Source: Candidatus Saccharimonadales bacterium (GTDB lineage: Bacteria; Patescibacteriota; Saccharimonadia; Saccharimonadales; UBA4665). From it: a stretch of 31,739 bases of DNA. The first letter of the stretch is position 1, and every line of letters starts with the position of its first letter. The DNA lies in the NCBI GenBank assembly GCA_050011495.1, contig JBEKIY010000002.1, positions 1 to 31,739 on the forward strand. Direction: 5' to 3'. Both the position numbers and the translations under genes were made by a program. The notes below the pieces were generated by a model. That model made no database searches and was not told the DNA's origin. It worked only from the letters and a program-made list of their open reading frames with translations. Below, piece after piece: positions 5,088-30,444 of the stretch.

Positions 5088-5164
5088 GGGCTTGTAGCTC
5101 AGCTGGTTAGAGCGCGTCACTGATAATGACGAGGTCCCAGGTTCAAGTCCTGGCAAGCCCACCA
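5088..5164 (+). tRNA. tRNA-Ile(GAU), CCA encoded
   Basis: Acceptor GGGCTTG/CAAGCCC, anticodon loop CT-GAT-AA, T-loop GTTCAAG, A73, 3' CCA. Confidence 0.97.
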
Positions 5165-5405: not shown

Positions 5406-6199
5406 GTAGGTCGACGTTTGAGTTTAGGCAGCGAGACTATTTAGGGAGTAGTTTCTAGCATAAACTCAAGCTACCAGAATGTGCTAACGACTAATTGGGA
5501 TGCTCGGGCTTTGTAACTTAAAAATTTGGAAGTAAATAATTTTAAGACAAACGGCTAAATTATTGGTAATTACCAATAACTAGTCAATTGCACATCGTAA
5601 AAAGTTACTCAAGCGCACACAAAGGATGCCTTGACGTGAGATACCGATGAAGGACGTGAGGAGCTGCGATAAGCTTCGGGGAGTTGCTAACTAAACTTTG
5701 ATCCGAAGATGTCCGAATGGGGAAACCTTAATAGAGTCATGTCTATTAGCGCTTGTCTGAATACATAGGACGAGATAGCGGTAAGCGGGAGAACTGAAAC
5801 ATCTTAGTACCCCGAGGAATAGAAAGTAAATAACGATTCCGGTAGTAGTGGCGAGCGAATCCGGAACAGCCCAAACTTTTTAGGTTTCCGTTTGGCAACA
5901 AACGGATAAGTTGGTAGACGAATATCTAAAAGGGGTTGTGACACTACAAACAACCAGTACGGAGCCCTGAGCTTGCTCAGATTTCCGTATTGGAAGTACG
6001 ATCTACCATTATCGTACATAAGGTCTCAATTAATAGCGTTGCGAGCAGAAGCTTTTGGAAAGAAGCGCCAAAGACAGTGATAGCCTGGTATGCAAAGTTT
6101 CGCTAACCTTATATTTGTTTTTGTCGAGTAAATCGGGACACGTGAAACCCTGATTGAATCTGGGGGGTCCACCCTCCAAGGCTAAATATATCTTACGAT

Positions 6200-6230
<31 letters not shown>

Positions 6231-8315
6231 TAAAAGAACCCAGGAATGGGAGTGAAATAGATCCTGAAATTGTGTGCGTACAAGGAGTCGGAGCTAGATT
6301 TATCTAGTGACGGCGTGCTTTTTGTAGAACGATCCAGCGAGTTATTTGCATGCGCAAGCTTAAGTCATTTGACGGAGGCGTAGTGAAAGCGAGCCTGAAT
6401 AGGGCGTCCTAGTGCATGTGAATAGACCCGAAACCGAGTGATCTAACCATGGCCAGGCTGAAGCGCGGGTAAAACCGTGTGGAGGGCCGCACCAGTGTGA
6501 ATTGCAATACGCTTGGATGAGCTGTGGTTAGTGGTGAAATGCTAATCGAACTCGGAGATAGCTGGTTCTCCTCGAAATAGCTTTAGGGCTAGCGTTGCGT
6601 GGTAGCAGATAGGGGTAGAGCTCTGTTTCGGACTGGGGCTCGTAAGAGTACTCATCCTTGATAAACTACGAATACTATCTGTGGAATCGTGGCAGTCAGA
6701 ACGGCGGGGCTAAGCTCGTCGCTCAAAAGGGAAACAGCCCAGATCGCCATCTAAGGTCCCTAAATTTACACTAAGTGGGAAACGAGGTGAGATTTCTTAA
6801 ACAGCGAGGATGTTGGCTTAGAAGCAGCCATACATTTAAAGAGTGCGTAACAGCTCACTCGTCAAGAGATCTTGCGCGGAAAATGTAACGGGGCTCAAGT
6901 GTAATACCGAAGATGCGAACTTCTAGCTTGCTAGGAGTGGTAGAGGAGCGTTGATATCGCACTGAAGTCAGATTGTGAGATCTGGTGGAGCGTTATCAAG
7001 TGAGAATGCTGGAATGAGTAACTATAAGGCAGGTGAGAAACCTGCCCACCGAAAGAGCAAGGTTTCCTGGGCCACGGTAATCGTCCCAGGGTTAGTCGGT
7101 CCTAAGTCGAGGCGAGTAGCGTAGGCGATGGACAACGGGTTAATATTCCCGTACTAGTTTTACATTGTTTAAAAATGCGCGGCATATTAGTAGAATCGGA
7201 TTCATGGTTATATCCGTCTAACCTCGAGAAAAACGAGGGAATGAAACGACCTTACGGTTGGATTTCTATAACAGTGCTGACAAGAAAAGTTTTTAAACTT
7301 ATGTGTAAGGCTATCCGTACCGCAAACCGACACAGGTGCTCAGGTCGAGTAGACCAAGGTGTACGAGTGATTCTTCGTTAAGGAACTCGGCAAACAAGCG
7401 GCCGTAACTTCGGAATAAGGCCTGCCTCCATTAGGAGGCCGCAGCTAAAGAACCCATGCAACTGTTTACCAAAAACACAGGTCTCTGCTAACACGAAAGT
7501 GGATGTATAGGGGCTGACGCCTGCCCGGTGCTGGAAGGTTAAGGGGAGAAGTGTATGCTTTGAACTGAAGCCCCAGTGAACGGCGGCGGTAACTATAACC
7601 GTCCTAAGGTAGCGAAATTCCTTGTCAGGTAAGTTCTGACCCGCACGAATGGCGTAATGATATGGGTACTGTCTCAACGAAGAGCTCGGTGAAAGTGCAT
7701 TGACGGTAAAGATGCCGTCTGTCCGCAGCAGGACGGAAAGACCCCGTGCAGCTTTACTATAACTTGGCATTGAGCTGGGTTGTAACATGTGTAGAATAGG
7801 TGGGAGACTATGATGCTTAGGCGCTAGCTTAGGCGGAGTCAACAGTGAAATACCACTCTTGTTATGATCTTGTTCTAACCTGGTCCTCAAACTATCTATG
7901 ATAAATTTCGTAGCTAGTTTCAGGATCGGGGACCGTGTCTGGTGGATAGTTTAACTGGGGCGGTTGCCTCCTAAAAAGTATCGGAGGCGTTCAAAGGTTG
8001 GCTAGATTCGGATGGAAATCGAATCGATAGTGTATACGCATAAGCCAGCTTGACTGTGAGGGTGACAACCCGAGCAGGCACGAAAGTGGGAGTAAGTTTT
8101 CCGCTGTCCGTACATATTTGTACATGAGTGTGGTATCGGCAGCGCTTTCGGATAAAAGTTACGCCGGGGATAACAGGCTTATAGCGCCCAATAGTTCACA
8201 TAGACGGCGCTGTTTGGCACCTCGATGTCGGCTCATCTCATCCTGGGGCTGAAGCATGTCCCAAGGGTCCGGCTGTTCGCCGGTTAAAGAGGTACGCGAG
8301 CTGGGTTCAGAACGT

Positions 8316-9068
8316 AAGTTACATTGCGTTCTACTACTGAAAAGTAGTAAAATACGAGTGTACATCGCACTTTTCGTATTAATACCTGACTAATATCGGT
8401 GAAACCCTACAAAAATTCGAACATTTTTGAGGGTAATACCGAGGGAAGACATATATGTCTGACGAAGAAAAAGCCTACATAGCTGGATTTCTTGATGGCG
8501 ATGGATCAATAATGGCACAACTTATAAAACGAAAGGGATATAAGTTTGGGTACCAGATCCGTGTCAGTATAGTTTTCTATCAAAAGACTATACATCAAGA
8601 TCATCTTCTTTGGCTAAAGAAGCAGCTTGGCTATGGTTATGTTCGGATACGCAATGACGGTATGAGTGAATATACTATAGTTGGCTTAAGTGAAGTAGAA
8701 CATGTGTTATCTACTCTGAATTCCTTTCTTCGACTTAAAAAAGTTCTTGCACGTAAAGTATTGTTGCTCATAAAGCAGCATCCTTCTCAGCGTAAAGTTA
8801 ATGTTGCGCAATTTATTAGACTAAGTAAATTAGTTGATGAAACAGCTAAATTTAACTATACAAAGAAACGCAAAAACACTAGCACTGAAGTAATTGAATT
8901 TTTATTAAGTAAAAATATATATGTCCCCGTAGAGACTGAAGGATAGTGTAGCTACTAACCAGAGATAGAATTCTTAACTAAAGATCTATCATACGTCAGC
9001 CCCTCATTACACACATAGTAATAGGGTGAAGATATAGTCCGTGCCACTAGTAATAGTGGATTTACACG
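8316..9068 (+). mobile_element. Group I intron (753 nt) at 23S position equivalent to E. coli 2593, IA-like
   Basis: Exons rejoin as AGAACGT|CGTGAGACAG. 5' exon ends in U paired to G of IGS GCGTTCT (8326-8332); last base is G9068. P3 CTGAC/GTCAG, P4 TCGGT/ACCGA, P7 GAGACTG with AAGATATAGTCC, P9 CCACTA-GTAA-TAGTGG. Extra helices between P7 and P3' suggest subgroup IA. Confidence 0.95.
8455..8946 (+). CDS. Single-motif LAGLIDADG homing endonuclease (I-CreI/I-MsoI-like), 163 aa
   Basis: YIAGFLDGDGSI motif, FYQKT, GYGYVR and C-terminal KKRKNTS; lies in the intron P6 loop and its 3' end runs through P6'/P7. Confidence 0.93.
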   Translation: MSDEEKAYIAGFLDGDGSIMAQLIKRKGYKFGYQIRVSIVFYQKTIHQDHLLWLKKQLGYGYVRIRNDGMSEYTIVGLSEVEHVLSTLNSFLRLKKVLARKVLLLIKQHPSQRKVNVAQFIRLSKLVDETAKFNYTKKRKNTSTEVIEFLLSKNIYVPVETEG

Positions 9069-9505
9069 CGTGAGACAGTTCGGTTCATATCCGCTGTGGA
9101 CGATAGGAAATTTGAGAGGATTTATCCCTAGTACGAGAGGACCGGGATGAACGTACCGCTGGTGTACCAGTTGTTCTACCAAGGGCATGGCTGGGTAGCT
9201 ATGTGCGGACTAGATAAGCGCTGAAAGCATATTAAGCGCGAAGCTAACCTCAAGATTAGATTTCCCTATGAGACCCCTGAAAGACGATCAGGTTGATAGG
9301 CGCAAGGTGAAAGCACGGTAACGTGTGGAGCCAAAGCGTACTAATAGGTCCATTGACTTTTTATGATCTTCCACAACTACTATTTATAGTTTTTTGTGGA
9401 AGTAGCAATTGACTAGTTTTTGGTGTATTATCATCACACGTTTGCCTTAAAAATTTATTTATTACATGGACATCGATATCCGTCTTTAGTAACAATAGGA
9501 CGTCA

Positions 9506-9617
9506 TCGGTGCCCATGGCGCGAGGGAAACACCTGTTCCCATACCGAACACAGAAGTTAAGCCTCGCAGCGGTTACAATACTTGGGGTCCACCCCTGGGA
9601 AAATAGCACGGTGCCGA
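9506..9617 (+). rRNA. rrf: 5S rRNA
   Basis: TCGGTGC...GTGCCGA terminal helix; conserved CCCATACCGAACAC and GAAGTTAAGC. Confidence 0.95.
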
Positions 9618-9624
9618 ATTATAT

Positions 9625-24244: not shown

Positions 24245-27013
24245 ATGGGACAAACAACCGATTTACGGGTTGGGAGGTTATTTACTCAACCAAAAAAGAA
24301 GGCTTACGATCAATTAAATTGGATATTAAGCGATTCAATCATCATTAATCCACAAAGTAAAACGCCAGTTTTTGAGCAGAAAGGCGTTGAATTTCCAGAG
24401 GGCTGGTCACTTAATGCAATTAATATTGTAGCCCAGAAATATTTCACCGGCACACCAGGTACAGCAACTCGAGAAAAATCATTAAAACAACTTATTGACA
24501 GAGTAGTAGATACTATTACGCGTGAGGGAGTACAGAACGGTTATTTTGATACCGAAACTGAAGCCGAAGATTTCCGCGAAGAACTTAAGTATATTCTGGC
24601 AACCCAACGGGCATCGTTTAATTCACCAGTATGGTTTAACATAGGCGCCAACGAACGTTCCCAACAAGCCAGTGCTTGTTTTATTTTAGGTATTGAAGAC
24701 ACCATGCCATCGATATTGAATTGGTATGTTGAAGAGGGGATGATTTTCAAAGGCGGATCAGGATCAGGCATTAATCTAAGTCCCATCAGATCGTCAATCG
24801 AACCGCTTGGGAAGAGTGCTGGCACAGCATCGGGACCACTAAGTTTTATGCGTGGGGCCGATTCGTCAGCCGGAGCAATTAAGAGTGGTGGCAAAACTCG
24901 CCGAGCTGCCAAGATGGTTATATTGAATATTGACCACCCAGATATAGAGGCGTTTATATGGAGCAAGGCGATTGAAGAGCGCAAAGCAAGAGTGCTCCAA
25001 GAAGCCGGTTTTGATATGAATCTTGACGGTAAAGATGCGTTTTCAGTTCAATATCAGAATGCCAATATTTCAGTAAGAGTAACTGATGAATTTATGGAAG
25101 CTGTGGAAAATGATGAAGACTGGGAGTTGAAAGCGGTTAGAACCGGGAAAACAGTTAAAAAGCTAAAAGCCCGATACCTATACCGTCAATTTGCTGAAGC
25201 GGCCTGGGAATGTGCCGATCCAGGTATGCAGTTTGATACAACCATTAATCGTTGGCACACTACACCAAACGCCGGCCGTATAGAAGCCAGTAATCCTTGT
25301 AGTGAATATATGCATTTAAATAATTCAGCCTGCAACCTTGCTAGCATTAATCTATTGAAGTATTTGAATGACGATGGTACTTTCGATATCCCATCGTTTG
25401 AGCATACTATAGACGCCATATTTACGGCTCAGGAGATATTAGTCGGCTATAGTGAGTATCCAACCGAAAAGATAACTAAAAACGCCAGAGCATACCGAGA
25501 ATTAGGTCTAGGCTATGCTAATTTGGGGGCACTCTTAATGGCCCAAGGGTTACCATATGATTCTGATGAAGGTCGAGCTCAGGCTGCAGCTATTACTGCA
25601 CTAATGACTGGCCGTGCCTACGCCATTAGTGCAAAATTAGCTTGTAAGGTTGGACCATTTGCCGGCTACCATAAAGATAAAGAAGCAATGCTACAGGTCA
25701 TAAAAATGCATCGGGCTGAAATCTCGCAAATTGATGCCAGTCTGGTATCAGAAGAACTGCTTAATGCCGCCGTAGCCGCTTGGGATGAAGCTGTTGAGCT
25801 TAGTACGCTATATGGAGTTAGAAATTCACAAGCTAGCTTATTGGCTCCGACCGGCACGATTGGTTTAATGATGGATTGTGATACAACTGGTATTGAACCG
25901 GATTTAGGGTTAGTAAAAGTTAAAAAACTAGTTGGCGGTGGTACGATGAGTATCGTCAATCAAACTGTTCCGCGAGCTCTTAAATCATTGGGCTATAATG
26001 ACTCTGAAATTGACGATATCGTCAGATATATTGACGAAGAGAAGACGATTATCGGGGCGCCGCATTTGAAGAAACAGCATAAAAATGTTTTTGCCTGTTC
26101 GATGGGCGATAACGCGATTGAATACAAGGGCCATGTAAATATGATGGCTGCAGTTCAGCCGTTTTTATCCGGAGCTATAAGTAAAACAGTTAATATGCCA
26201 GAAACTATTAGTGTTGAAGACATTGAGCAACTGCATATTGATGCTTGGAAAATGGGGTTAAAATCAATAGCTATTTATAGGGATAATTGTAAGGTAGGGC
26301 AACCTTTAAGTATGGCCAAAAAAGAATCCGATAATGCTAAAATTTCAGTCTCGCCAATGACCAGTGATCGTATCGTAATTAAAGGTCCAGTTCGCCGCCA
26401 ACTGCCTAAAATACGTAATTCTAAGACCATTTCTTTTAAAGTAGCTGGTAGCCATGGATATATAACGGCAGGTGAATATGACGATGGTATGCCTGGAGAA
26501 ATATTTATGAGAATAGCTAAACAGGGTTCAACTCTGGCTGGTTTTATGGATGCCTTAGCCATTAGTGTCAGCCACGGCTTACAATATGGCGTTCCTCTCA
26601 AGGATTATGTTCGGTCGTTCACTAGCATGGCCTTTGCACCGTCAGGTTTAACAGATGACCCCGAAATAAGAACTGCTTCGAGTATTGTTGACTATATATT
26701 TCGTCGTTTAGCTTTGAGCTATCTTTCATTTGACGATCGATTGGAGCTTGGGTTGGCTTCAATCGACGACATAACCAGCGACCAGATTGTCTTTCCAGAA
26801 ATGGATAAAACATCAACTGAAATAGATAATACTGGGCCACAAATGATCGAAAGTGTTGAAGAACTAAAGGAAGATTCAGATACTGACATTAAAGAATTAA
26901 AAACATTTAGTAGCGACGTGTCGCCAATTTGTTACAATTGCGGAAATCAAACCCAAAGAGCTGGCAATTGCTTTGTCTGTACCAGCTGCGGGTCAACGAC
27001 CGGATGTTCATAG
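24245..27013 (+). CDS. nrdJ: Class II (adenosylcobalamin-dependent) ribonucleotide reductase with C-terminal TSCPD-type region and Zn ribbon
   Basis: FNSPVWFN, SACFI, RRAAKM, NPCSEY, CNLASIN, APTGTI, GAISKTVN and C-terminal CYNC...CTSC; no intein seen. Confidence 0.93.
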   Translation: MGQTTDLRVGRLFTQPKKKAYDQLNWILSDSIIINPQSKTPVFEQKGVEFPEGWSLNAINIVAQKYFTGTPGTATREKSLKQLIDRVVDTITREGVQNGYFDTETEAEDFREELKYILATQRASFNSPVWFNIGANERSQQASACFILGIEDTMPSILNWYVEEGMIFKGGSGSGINLSPIRSSIEPLGKSAGTASGPLSFMRGADSSAGAIKSGGKTRRAAKMVILNIDHPDIEAFIWSKAIEERKARVLQEAGFDMNLDGKDAFSVQYQNANISVRVTDEFMEAVENDEDWELKAVRTGKTVKKLKARYLYRQFAEAAWECADPGMQFDTTINRWHTTPNAGRIEASNPCSEYMHLNNSACNLASINLLKYLNDDGTFDIPSFEHTIDAIFTAQEILVGYSEYPTEKITKNARAYRELGLGYANLGALLMAQGLPYDSDEGRAQAAAITALMTGRAYAISAKLACKVGPFAGYHKDKEAMLQVIKMHRAEISQIDASLVSEELLNAAVAAWDEAVELSTLYGVRNSQASLLAPTGTIGLMMDCDTTGIEPDLGLVKVKKLVGGGTMSIVNQTVPRALKSLGYNDSEIDDIVRYIDEEKTIIGAPHLKKQHKNVFACSMGDNAIEYKGHVNMMAAVQPFLSGAISKTVNMPETISVEDIEQLHIDAWKMGLKSIAIYRDNCKVGQPLSMAKKESDNAKISVSPMTSDRIVIKGPVRRQLPKIRNSKTISFKVAGSHGYITAGEYDDGMPGEIFMRIAKQGSTLAGFMDALAISVSHGLQYGVPLKDYVRSFTSMAFAPSGLTDDPEIRTASSIVDYIFRRLALSYLSFDDRLELGLASIDDITSDQIVFPEMDKTSTEIDNTGPQMIESVEELKEDSDTDIKELKTFSSDVSPICYNCGNQTQRAGNCFVCTSCGSTTGCS

Positions 27014-27076
27014 ACCATACTATGTAGAGCAATAACAAAACCAAGTTATAATGATGTATATAATAGTTGGTAGATC

Positions 27077-27343
27077 ATGAAACTGGTAATTCTTTATAGA
27101 CCGAAATCTGAGCATGCAACACTAGTCGAATCTTTTAGCGAGAGAGTTCTCAGTGCCATGCCCAATGCTTCAATTGAGAATATTGACGTTGATAGCCCAG
27201 AGGGGATCGCTAAACTTGAAGTTTATGGCATACTGCAATTCCCGGCAGTGTTAATAGTAGCTGATAATGGTTCGTTGGTTGATATCTGGCTGGGGGATGC
27301 ATTGCCATCTGTTGATCAAGTAGTTGATAGCTTAAGACGATAA
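27077..27343 (+). CDS. Small thioredoxin/glutaredoxin-fold-like protein lacking cysteines
   Basis: beta-alpha-beta pattern, IDVDS.EG...YGILQFPAVLIV (cis-Pro-like FP); no CxxC. Confidence 0.55.
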   Translation: MKLVILYRPKSEHATLVESFSERVLSAMPNASIENIDVDSPEGIAKLEVYGILQFPAVLIVADNGSLVDIWLGDALPSVDQVVDSLRR

Positions 27344-27421
27344 TAGGATTGTTGTAAAACATAAAATGCTTTATAGTTACATCTTGTAACAACTTAAGAA
27401 ATGCGCTTTATCTTGAGAAAA

Positions 27422-27616
27422 GGATAAATTAGCGGTAATCAACCGTGAAGCAGCGAGAAGAAAAGTTTTTCTAAACTTAGTAGAACTCGACGGAAGCCCG
27501 TATAACGTTGAAAGTAAGCGCTTATTGAGATCATCTCTCAAAGGAAGTTGGATGGTACCGTCCTAAAAATAATATAATAGGATTCCAACAGATAATAGAG
27601 ATGATTTTTTATTTTT
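27422..27616 (+). ncRNA. T-box riboswitch (Ile, AUC specifier) in the ileS leader
   Basis: Antiterminator GTTGGA-TGGTACC-GTCCTA...TAGGAT-TCCAAC; Stem II with AGUA/GAA S-turn; Stem III TTGAGA/TCTCAA; AAUCA loop. Confidence 0.9.
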
Positions 27617-27633
27617 AGAATAAGAGGAGAAAT

Positions 27634-30444
27634 ATGAAATTTTATAAAGGCCAGCGACGATCCTTTAACCAATATGAACCAGATCTTGTAAATTATTGGC
27701 GCGAAAATAAGATATTTGAAAAATCAGTTAATCAAAGACCAGCTGATAATAGTTTTGTATTTTATGATGGTCCACCATTTATTACAGGGGTTCCGCATTA
27801 CGGAACTTTGTTAAGCAGTATTGTTAAAGATGCTGTACCGCGTTACTGGACAATGAAAGGGAAAAGAGTTGAAAGGGTATGGGGTTGGGATTGCCATGGG
27901 TTGCCGGCAGAAGTATATACCGAGCAAAAATTAGGCATAAAAGATAAGCGTGAAGTATATAAAATTGGACTTGAAAAGTATGTTATCGCCTGCCGAGAAA
28001 ATATGGTCCAAACAGGTTCAGTCTGGGAAAAAACTGTTGATCAAATTGGTCGTTGGGTCAATTTTAAGGGCGCCTATAAGACTATGGACAATAACTATAT
28101 GGAATCAGTCTGGTGGGCATTCAAAAAGTTATATGACGACGGTAAAATCTACGAAGGCGAGCGGGTTTTACTATATTGTACACGCGATGCTACGCCGTTA
28201 TCTAAAGCGGAAATAGCCCAAGATAATTCATACCAAGAAGTTACGGACCCGTCAGTCTATGTCAAATTTAAACTGGTTAATCGTCCCAATACCTATATGC
28301 TGGCTTGGACCACTACACCGTGGACGCTATTGGCAAATACCGCATTGGCGATAAATGAAAAGTTAGAATACGCTGAAGTTAAAATCAACGATGAAGTGTT
28401 TATTGTGGCGGCAGATTTAGTTGAAAAAGTACTCTCCAACAACAATAATAACGTAGTACCTTTTACTATAATAAAAAAATATAGTGGCAAAGTACTTCTT
28501 AAATTACACTATGAACCATTGTTTGAAAATCGTGGTAAAAATGCACACATAATTTATAATGCCGACTATGTTAGCCTAGAAGAAGGAACTGGAATCGTCC
28601 ATATCGCGCCAGCTTACGGCGAGGAAGACTATGAATTAGCAAAAAAGTATGAAATACCGGTTGTATCGGATGTTGATGACAATGGTTTTTATAATGAAGG
28701 TGAATGGAAGGACCAGAATATCTGGGAAGTTAATAAACTAATCGCAAAAACTCTACATGAGCGTAACATTGTTTGGAAGATTGATTATGTACAACACAGC
28801 TATCCTCACTGTTATCGTTGTGGTACTAGGTTGATGTATCGGGCCCACCCGAGTTGGTTTGTAAACATCAATCAACAACGCGAACTAATGTTAGAGCAAA
28901 ACAGTAAAATTAATTGGTTCCCAACGCATTTTAAAGAAGGCAGATTTACTAGTACATTGCTAACAGCACCTGATTGGAATATTTCTCGAGATCGTTTTTG
29001 GGCGACGCCATTACCAGTTTGGAGGGGAACAGATGAAAACGGTAAAGAGATTATTAAAGTTATAGGCAGTTATGATGAACTAGAACAGTTGCATCGGATA
29101 GATAAAGTTATGGACTGTTGGTTTGAATCAGGATCCATGCCATTCGCCCAATTTCATTATCCATTTGAGAATCAACAGAAATTCGAGGAAAATTTTCCTG
29201 GTGACTTTATAGCTGAACACGTTGGTCAAATAAGGGGATGGTTCTATTCATTACATGCAATATCAGTAGGGTTATTTGCCAAACCGGCATTTCACAACGT
29301 AATTGTTACCGGAACGATAATGGGCAACGATGGTCGAAAAATGAGTAAGTCATATGGGAACTTTACAGATCCTGAAAAGATAATAGGTCTTTACGGGGCT
29401 GATTCGTTGCGATATTTACTACTTTCTTCGCCAGTAATGAATGGTGAAGATTTTATAGTGCTTGATAAGGATGTCATTGATGTTTCGCGTCGGCTCAATA
29501 TGATCTGGAATATGTATGATTTCTTTACACTCTATGCATCGGTTGATAATTGGGAGACGGATAAAGTATTGTCTGACCCCTATGATAAAGTCACCAATTT
29601 ACTAGACAGATGGATAATTTCAAGGTTACATCAACTTATCCAAGATATTGATGGCGCAATGCAGAGGTATGACTTTCCTCAAGCGTTAAAGCCGGTCATG
29701 CTATTTATTGACGATGCCTCAAACTGGTATGTTAGACGAAGCCGCAAACGTTTTTGGAAAAGCACTAATGACACCGATAAGGACGATGCCTACATGACCC
29801 TATATTACGTGCTAGTACAATTAGCGGTTGTAATGGCGCCATTTACGCCATTCCTCTCAGAAGAACTTTATCGCCTGCTAACTGGATCGGAATCTGTCCA
29901 TCTGTGTAATTGGCCACAAGCAGGGCATATAAATGACACATTAATCAGTGAAATGGCTATGACGCGAGAACTAATTACTCAAGGTCTTGCTCAAAGAGCC
30001 GATAAACAGATAAAGGTCCGCCAGCCACTATCCAAGGCAACAATTACAATTCCATCGCAGTTTGTTGAGTTTAAAAAGAATGAATTATCCTCGGTAATAG
30101 CAGACGAATTAAACATAAAAGAAATAGCCACTAAGATCGGTAAAAATGCTTCAATTTCAATTGACACTAAATTAACAGATGCTTTGGTTAGCGAAGGGCT
30201 AGCCAGAGAAATTATCAGACATGTTCAACAAACCCGTAAAGAAGCTGGTTTTAATGTAGAAGATAGAATTACACTAATGATCGACAGCAACAATGCTAAA
30301 ATAATGGATTCTCTAGCTGAATATAGAGATCTAATCATGCAAGAAACCCTAGCAGCAACTATAAGTAACAAAAAATCAGACGAAATGTTTAGTAAATCAG
30401 TAGAAATTAACAGTAGTAACGTTAACATTAATATTACTAAATAA
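27634..30444 (+). CDS. ileS: Isoleucyl-tRNA synthetase, type 2 (IleRS2)
   Basis: FYDGPPF, GWDCHGLP, WTTTPWTL, GTGIVH, DWNISRDRFW, DCWFESGSMP, QIRGWFY and KMSKS; no C-terminal Zn finger; SD GAGGAG. Confidence 0.96.
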   Translation: MKFYKGQRRSFNQYEPDLVNYWRENKIFEKSVNQRPADNSFVFYDGPPFITGVPHYGTLLSSIVKDAVPRYWTMKGKRVERVWGWDCHGLPAEVYTEQKLGIKDKREVYKIGLEKYVIACRENMVQTGSVWEKTVDQIGRWVNFKGAYKTMDNNYMESVWWAFKKLYDDGKIYEGERVLLYCTRDATPLSKAEIAQDNSYQEVTDPSVYVKFKLVNRPNTYMLAWTTTPWTLLANTALAINEKLEYAEVKINDEVFIVAADLVEKVLSNNNNNVVPFTIIKKYSGKVLLKLHYEPLFENRGKNAHIIYNADYVSLEEGTGIVHIAPAYGEEDYELAKKYEIPVVSDVDDNGFYNEGEWKDQNIWEVNKLIAKTLHERNIVWKIDYVQHSYPHCYRCGTRLMYRAHPSWFVNINQQRELMLEQNSKINWFPTHFKEGRFTSTLLTAPDWNISRDRFWATPLPVWRGTDENGKEIIKVIGSYDELEQLHRIDKVMDCWFESGSMPFAQFHYPFENQQKFEENFPGDFIAEHVGQIRGWFYSLHAISVGLFAKPAFHNVIVTGTIMGNDGRKMSKSYGNFTDPEKIIGLYGADSLRYLLLSSPVMNGEDFIVLDKDVIDVSRRLNMIWNMYDFFTLYASVDNWETDKVLSDPYDKVTNLLDRWIISRLHQLIQDIDGAMQRYDFPQALKPVMLFIDDASNWYVRRSRKRFWKSTNDTDKDDAYMTLYYVLVQLAVVMAPFTPFLSEELYRLLTGSESVHLCNWPQAGHINDTLISEMAMTRELITQGLAQRADKQIKVRQPLSKATITIPSQFVEFKKNELSSVIADELNIKEIATKIGKNASISIDTKLTDALVSEGLAREIIRHVQQTRKEAGFNVEDRITLMIDSNNAKIMDSLAEYRDLIMQETLAATISNKKSDEMFSKSVEINSSNVNINITK

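Follow-up and report, generated by a model that had tools for sequence, protein, structure and literature searches.

T-boxes are the standard example of one RNA reading another, and to our knowledge every T-box described so far switches by dismantling its A1/A2 helix. Stem III was recognised as a part of the aminoacylation sensor only in 2019. How the docking of Stem III is converted into a genetic decision is still under single-molecule study (PMC12647780). The leader in front of ileS in the window (the whole 31,739-nt stretch of DNA that was analysed) raises the question of whether a T-box can switch through Stem III and leave A1/A2 intact: a sequence-only reading had proposed a new OFF state formed by capturing Stem III, either a terminator with a large structured loop or occlusion of the edge of the Shine-Dalgarno (SD) sequence.

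The gene at 27634-30444 (+ strand) is ileS, which encodes an isoleucine--tRNA ligase of 936 aa (TIGR00392, 816 bits against a cut-off of 621). IleS relatives are from Candidatus Saccharimonadales/Saccharibacteria MAGs, and the source genome is 0.71 Mb. At the gathering threshold, Rfam gave no T-box match in the window. In an Rfam search at an E-value threshold, RF00230 scored 13.3 bits (E ~0.4-1) against a gathering score of 93, and this match was lost entirely when a narrower slice of sequence was used. Hence, with a score below gathering, standard annotation would miss the leader. We found that the ileS leader is a genuine but divergent T-box, with a specifier that matches the ileS amino acid and the cognate anticodon and with a UGGN bulge that matches the NCCA end. 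Its architecture is likely that of the actinobacterial ileS type, with an ultrashort Stem I, Stem II, a IIA/B region, Stem III and an A1-bulge-A2 hairpin. The parts of the leader and its presumed ligand are as follows.

27432..27446, + strand: ultrashort Stem I, GCGGU / ACCGU, with terminal loop AAUCA
27438-27440, + strand: specifier AUC, then A, in the 7-nt anticodon-loop-like loop of Stem I
27450..27509, + strand: Stem II region, from conserved alignment columns
27455-62 and 27479-84, + strand: S-turn motifs of Stem II, GAGAAGAA and AGUAGA, from conserved alignment columns
27490-27501, + strand: Stem IIA hairpin ACGG/CCGU, with F-box-like CCCGUAUAAC
27516..27520, + strand: purine string AAGCG, the 5' half of the RRRxG-Stem III-AA motif
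27521..27544, + strand: Stem III, from the fold of 27516-27590, C27521-G27544 down to A27530-U27536
27547..27589, + strand: antiterminator-type hairpin, from folds and covariation
27547-52 / 27584-89, + strand: A1, GUUGGA / UCCAAC, from the fold
27553-59, + strand: bulge UGGUACC, from the sequence, set against the A-CCA of tRNA-Ile
27560-65 / 27578-83, + strand: A2, GUCCUA / UAGGAU, with loop 27566-77, from the fold
27624..27629, + strand: SD sequence GAGGAG, not sequestered beyond chance
5088..5164, + strand: tRNA-Ile(GAU), the presumed ligand (ARAGORN), with a gene-encoded A73-CCA end

The ileS start codon is at 27634, and the numbering of the hairpin is the corrected one (A2 3' strand TAGGAT at 27578-27583, A1 3' strand TCCAAC at 27584-27589). 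In a 15-genome alignment, the specifier ATC is invariant and Stem I covaries (GCGG/CCGY, GUGG/CCAY, GCAG/CUGY). The Stem IIA pairs are invariant in a 13-leader alignment and so provide no covariation evidence for IIA. The discriminator-domain motif RRRxG-Stem III-AA, as defined in PMC7583486, is present as AAGCG, Stem III at 27521-44 and AA at 27545-46, and the A, G and G of the purine string are invariant in 45 leaders. The anticodon GAU of the tRNA-Ile fits the AUC specifier, and its ACCA end fits the UGGU bulge. Covariation of the fourth bulge base with the discriminator base of tRNA-Ile was not seen: two genomes have a UGGA bulge yet a tRNA-Ile(GAU) with A73 (G112, with leaders L068/L120, and G169, with leaders L051/L121), so the usual pairing of the fourth bulge base with base 73 is not kept there. 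No tRNA-Ile was recovered from G023, G031 and G142.

The surroundings of the leader hold some further features. Upstream of Stem I is a hairpin, UUAUCUU-GAGAAA-AGGAUAA (27408-27427), which recurs with different sequences in relatives, for example in GCTT..AGC and GCAT..GCG forms. A promoter candidate, TTGTTG-17-TATAGT (27349-77), was read by eye and is absent from the list produced by the scan. Between nrdJ (24245-27013) and the T-box lies an 88-aa ORF (27077-27343) with no NCBIfam match. Elsewhere in the window, the 23S rRNA match in 5598-9619 carries large insertions relative to the Rfam model; it ends at 8378 and the 5S starts at 9505, a gap of ~1.1 kb.

Between the antiterminator hairpin and the SD sequence, we found a segment whose partner lies inside Stem III: ATCATCTCT (27530-27538) and AGAGATGAT (27597-27605) are exact reverse complements, and the coordinates and the perfect complementarity claimed for this pair by the sequence-only reading were all correct. 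The elements of this long helix are given here.

27530..27538, + strand: 5' strand of the long (terminator) helix, ATCATCTCT, from sequence, fold and covariation
27590..27596, + strand: linker AGAUAAU, which joins A1 to the 3' strand of the terminator; its sequence and its length vary among relatives
27597..27605, + strand: 3' strand of the long (terminator) helix, AGAGATGAT (= AGAGAUGAU), from sequence, shuffles and covariation
27606..27616, + strand: U-tract U5-A-U5 (TTTTT-A-TTTTT), which directly abuts the helix

The long helix draws its 5' strand from Stem III, namely from the final base of that stem's 5' strand, from its loop and from the upper part of its 3' strand. Hence, the long helix and Stem III cannot coexist, because the 3' strand of Stem III is common to both. 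The long helix has -12.7 kcal/mol against -5.3 ± 2.0 for shuffles of the window sequence, and its energy was reached in 5/2000 of these shuffles. In the MFE fold of 27400-27640, the long helix is used with the antiterminator nested inside, and the energies for the window are -16.5 for the truncated fold vs -22.0 for the full fold. Opposite CAAAGGAA (27539-46), the linker AGAUAAU forms an internal loop in the OFF state. As in an intrinsic terminator, a helix of 9-10 bp ends at 27605 and the U-tract follows directly; instead of a compact short loop, the helix encloses 58 nt (27539-27596) folded as A1-bulge-A2. A simple terminator scan found no short-loop hairpin with a U-run in 27000-27800. Such hairpin and U-run sites are not commoner in the window than in shuffles (15 vs 14.7), so the window scan gives no support for intrinsic terminators in this organism generally.

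A DNA search of 40 relatives yielded homologous leaders in many genera, and by eye these relatives repeat the layout with different helix sequences (ATCACCTCAA/TTGAGGTGAT, TACACCTCA/TGAGGTGTA and ATCATTTCTT/AAGAAATGAT). In the 13-leader MAFFT alignment, pairing at the 8 common long-helix pairs is 92-100%, and 5/8 changed on both sides; sliding the partner columns lowered the paired cells to 35-51%. A second MAFFT alignment, of 45 compact leaders and fitted to no structure, gave 9/9 long-helix pairs changed on both sides with 96.2% of cells paired, vs 38-47% in slid controls, these covariation counts being from related genomes and not formal probabilities. Hence, the check that the sequence-only reading had named, covariation of 27530-38 with 27597-605 in orthologues, came out in its favour, since the pairing is conserved with compensatory changes. 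The bases of the Stem III loop, which are free of the constraint of Stem III, covary with the 3' segment as well (e.g. GUCGUUAC/GUAACGGC in L049).

We also compared, free of any alignment, the 45 nt upstream of A1 with the segment between A1 and the U-run in 98 leaders, and found that the best duplex has a mean of -13.4 kcal/mol vs -6.9 kcal/mol for shuffles (median z -3.1). In leaders of the Stem III type, Stem III has -5 to -9 kcal/mol and the long helix -12 to -23 kcal/mol, and the genus of the window has the weakest long helix of the family (-11 to -14 kcal/mol). Of the 5 nt that follow the helix, 4 or more are U in 92/98 leaders, against 2.5% of background 5-nt windows, with U frequencies of 0.98, 0.96, 0.94 and 0.89 at positions +1 to +4. 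Because A-U pairs can prolong the helix into the U-tract, this count was anchored on the model, which includes part of the U-run and so leans slightly towards it. The start codon comes 20-30 nt further downstream. In most relatives, the freed A-rich 5' strand of Stem III can also pair with the U-tract.

Stem III is conserved in its own right. In the window, A27524 is bulged and the loop is UCAUC (27531-35). The hairpin is found in 45/45 leaders, with a mean of -5.7 kcal/mol vs -1.65 kcal/mol for dinucleotide shuffles (z -3.1), and its base-anchored pairs change from A-U in some leaders to U-A or G-C in others. This test used per-sequence folds and base-anchored pair tables, since the MAFFT alignment holds two sequence groups in different registers. 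Similarly, in the 45-leader alignment A1 is 98.9% paired with 4/6 pairs changing on both sides, and A2 is 89.4% paired with 5/6 pairs changing on both sides.

The two helices appear in turn as the RNA is lengthened in the computer. In RNA ending at A1, Stem III and A1/A2 fold in 64/67 leaders; in RNA extended to the first U, the long helix forms with A1 intact in 63/67 and Stem III is gone in 64/67 (mean ddG of the extended fold, -9.7 kcal/mol). The A1-bulge-A2 hairpin is thus predicted to persist in both states, in line with the earlier proposal that the long helix excludes Stem III and spares the antiterminator. Two mutually exclusive helices that are both conserved are the classical signature of a switch.

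The canonical platform was searched for with the same approach. In the window, the antiterminator 3' strand (27578-27590) pairs with the next 77 nt at -6.2 kcal/mol, a value reached by 766/2000 shuffles and therefore at chance, and across the 98 leaders the A2/A1 3' strands pair with the next 76 nt at a mean of -8.5 vs -7.6 kcal/mol for shuffles (median z -0.2). These results bear out the earlier statement that no downstream strand is complementary to the 3' side of the antiterminator. In leaders of the Stem III type, a canonical terminator abutting the U-run would have only 0 to -6 kcal/mol. The test is sensitive, as it recovers textbook terminators in L112 and L113 and a CUCCUG/CAGGAG SD sequestrator in L097. 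We reject the canonical terminator or sequestrator for the leader of the window, where the duplex is at chance; such elements are real in L112, L113, L097, L134 and L144. Hence, both Stem III and the long helix exist, exclude each other and are under selection, with a precisely placed U-tract and without a canonical partner.

For the spread of this design, we built a covariance model from the 13-leader alignment and found that it matches 126/151 sampled Saccharimonadales genomes, usually once per genome. We retrieved 90 of the matches from this order sample, aligned 100 matches and examined 98 leaders. About 60/98 leaders have the Stem III-type layout (59/89 of those from the order sample), in a set in which leaders with the best model scores are over-represented. 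Across the phylum as a whole, 31/151 sampled genomes match the model; outside the order the matches are weaker and their designs are mixed, with a terminator or sequestrators of the canonical kind, a closing helix where Stem III is lacking, or stand-alone terminators. The stand-alone form is seen in four leaders of other orders (L142, L149, L151, L154) as an ACACC...GGUGU hairpin right after the A1 3' strand; unlike under the canonical rule, this terminator hairpin shares no visible strand with A1/A2 or Stem III. The model also matches the antisense strand of the L038 leader with 32 bits, which is an artefact, because the nested-helix layout is nearly palindromic.

The gene order downstream varies among relatives. 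In many of them (L011, L012, L015, L021 and many of L030-L119, e.g. L032, L036 and L038, as well as L042, L050 and L084), the first ORF after the T-box is not ileS and does not start with MKFK..., and ileS lies 0.4-0.9 kb further downstream. Hence, in those relatives the T-box controls a small operon. In six leaders (L055, L034, L056, L094, L119, L084), the antiterminator 3' strand is complementary over 9-11 bp to codons ~4-8 of the downstream ORF, 50-60 nt apart, and the sequences involved differ from genome to genome; either the chance tail of 98 tests or a second, translational layer could account for it.

The best reading of the leader, which we put at a probability of roughly 0.7, is a transcription terminator that would compete with Stem III in a T-box sensing tRNA-Ile. 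Stem III (27521-44) and the antiterminator-type hairpin (27547-89) would be the first to fold as the RNA is transcribed. On emerging, AGAGAUGAU (27597-605) would use the loop of Stem III as its toehold and push out the 5' strand of that stem. The product would be a helix of 9-10 bp that ends where the U-tract (27606-16) begins; A1-bulge-A2 would remain folded at the far end of a single long hairpin with interruptions, and RNA polymerase would terminate ~20 nt before the SD sequence. Uncharged tRNA-Ile, with its anticodon paired to AUC and its ACCA end to the UGGU bulge, would keep Stem III and the purines locked to the duplex of tRNA and T-box, and termination would ensue when this lock is missing. 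We infer the termination, its dependence on tRNA and the action of the tRNA through stabilisation of Stem III; a look-up of public RNA runs on the locus for mapping transcript ends listed none. To hold the tRNA end, the antiterminator needs Stem III (PMC7583486), and with a mimic of charged tRNA, Stem III moves away from the antisequestrator (PMC12647780). Joined with the anatomy found here, this requirement and this movement make the tRNA-lock model the most economical one.

The same terminator helix may be coupled to the tRNA in another way, in which bound tRNA blocks closure of the base sterically or through the purine string and Stem III is passive, so that the switch is between the tRNA complex and the closing helix instead of between Stem III and the closing helix. 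We found 14 leaders without a Stem III hairpin, and 10/14 keep a closing helix of -10 kcal/mol or stronger that abuts the U-run and takes the purine string as its 5' strand (UAAGUCCCA / AGGGACUU); 2/14 also have a canonical terminator. Outside the order, L133, L135 and L136 have the same closing helix with different sequences. Hence, competition with Stem III cannot be the whole mechanism of the family, and what its members have in common may be a terminator whose 5' strand belongs to the 5' module of the discriminator, coupled to the tRNA by steric exclusion. However, ~60 leaders place the 5' strand of the helix exactly on the loop and 3' strand of Stem III, Stem III covaries, and its loop bases covary with the 3' segment, as expected if direct competition had been selected. 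For the leader of the window we consider a passive Stem III unlikely, and the two models are not mutually exclusive.

The long helix could also be a constitutive clamp or an element for processing or stability, such as an RNase III-type substrate, and not a terminator controlled by tRNA. The hairpin of the OFF state is long (~9-16 bp plus A1 plus A2), and RNase III is reported to cleave a T-box leader of S. aureus (PMC7913692). However, a permanent clamp would abolish Stem III, which is conserved by compensatory changes together with the RRRxG...AA motif for binding the tRNA 3' end, and the tightly placed U-tract is a hallmark of intrinsic termination, not of cleavage. We consider this improbable.

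Translational control, with an OFF state that occludes the ribosome-binding site and a U-run that is incidental, would agree with the closest known relatives, the actinobacterial ileS T-boxes, which are translational (PMC1262725). The sequence-only reading had offered such an OFF state as its second option: CTTATT (27521-27526) could pair with AATAAG (27619-27624), which reaches the SD sequence with its final G, the first SD base, and this 6-bp complementarity is kept in the congeners G001 and G002. It is unchanged there and so gives no covariation signal. In the window, this region pairs at -4.4 kcal/mol, a value reached by 813/2000 shuffles and thus at chance. Among 67 leaders, the Stem III 5' strand pairs with the region after the U-run no better than expected (mean z 0.02; -5.33 kcal/mol with its own sequence vs -5.22 kcal/mol across sequences), and this pairing overlaps the SD sequence in 21/67 leaders only. 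Control by translation would also leave unexplained the U-run that is fixed to the helix end in 92/98 leaders. We therefore reject occlusion of the SD edge as a conserved mechanism and regard a translational OFF state here as highly improbable; from the earlier proposal, the terminator that captures Stem III and has a large structured insert is the part that survives, on the covariation, the U-run and the folds.

Chance complementarity, which an AT-rich leader and a helix of only 9-10 bp might suggest, is refuted by the 5/2000 shuffles, the 9/9 pairs changed on both sides in 45 genomes and the collapse of the slid controls.

The reading of a terminator that competes with Stem III sets the leader apart from known systems. 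With the actinobacterial ileS T-box (Mycobacterium tuberculosis/M. smegmatis type; 'class II', translational, in TBDB), it shares ileS, the AUC specifier, its place in a short terminal anticodon-loop-like loop, the S-turn motifs of Stem II, the IIA/B region, the Stem III flanked by RRRxG...AA and the A1-UGGNACC-A2 hairpin. The actinobacterial leaders sequester the SD sequence, with the antisequestrator 3' strand as the 5' strand of the sequestering helix (PMC7583486, PMC12647780, PMC1262725), whereas here the antiterminator 3' strand is partnerless, SD pairing is at chance and the helix abutting the U-tract takes the loop and 3' strand of Stem III. In common with canonical transcriptional T-boxes (B. 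subtilis glyQS/tyrS type; RF00230), the leader has a two-fold choice upstream of a U-tract (which would be tRNA-dependent here), a bulge that pairs with NCCA and a Stem III within the discriminator. By the canonical rule, the A1 and A2 3' strands become the 5' strand of the terminator and the antiterminator is destroyed (PMC7583486, section 6.1; PMC10907184); here, A1/A2 is predicted to persist and Stem III to be destroyed, and Stem I is ultrashort. Strand invasion of the pbuE adenine riboswitch type, in which a helix stabilised by the ligand is invaded by a downstream terminator strand (PMC10907184 and general knowledge), offers the nearest equivalent: the invaded P1, the helix shared with the terminator, corresponds to Stem III, and a loop or toehold aids nucleation. 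Unlike in pbuE, the ligand here would be the end of a tRNA, bound by an adjacent hairpin which the terminator in turn encloses, and the invaded helix is not the element that pairs with the ligand.

In the T-box literature searched in full text, we found only the canonical rule, and in the literature searched we found no mention of T-boxes together with CPR, Patescibacteria or Saccharibacteria; both searches were incomplete, and absence from them is no proof. The leader carries a real, conserved and probably unreported variant of the T-box expression platform.

A large natural family thus appears to switch Stem III and to leave the tRNA-end-binding helix alone, so the T-box expression platform would be more plastic than assumed, and the family would give a direct experimental handle on the role of Stem III. 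We give even odds to the further view that in this class of T-boxes the antiterminator acts constitutively as a receptor of the tRNA 3' end and that the whole decision lies in whether Stem III and the purine string are docked or not. If this is true, nature has separated tRNA-end binding from switching, Stem III docking is the energy-transducing step of aminoacylation sensing, and these leaders are a natural system in which the docking step would be directly measurable. Current covariance models and databases would miss T-boxes of the Candidate Phyla Radiation (13 bits on Rfam here), and this leader would document one of the few cis-regulatory RNAs known from the reduced genomes of episymbionts.
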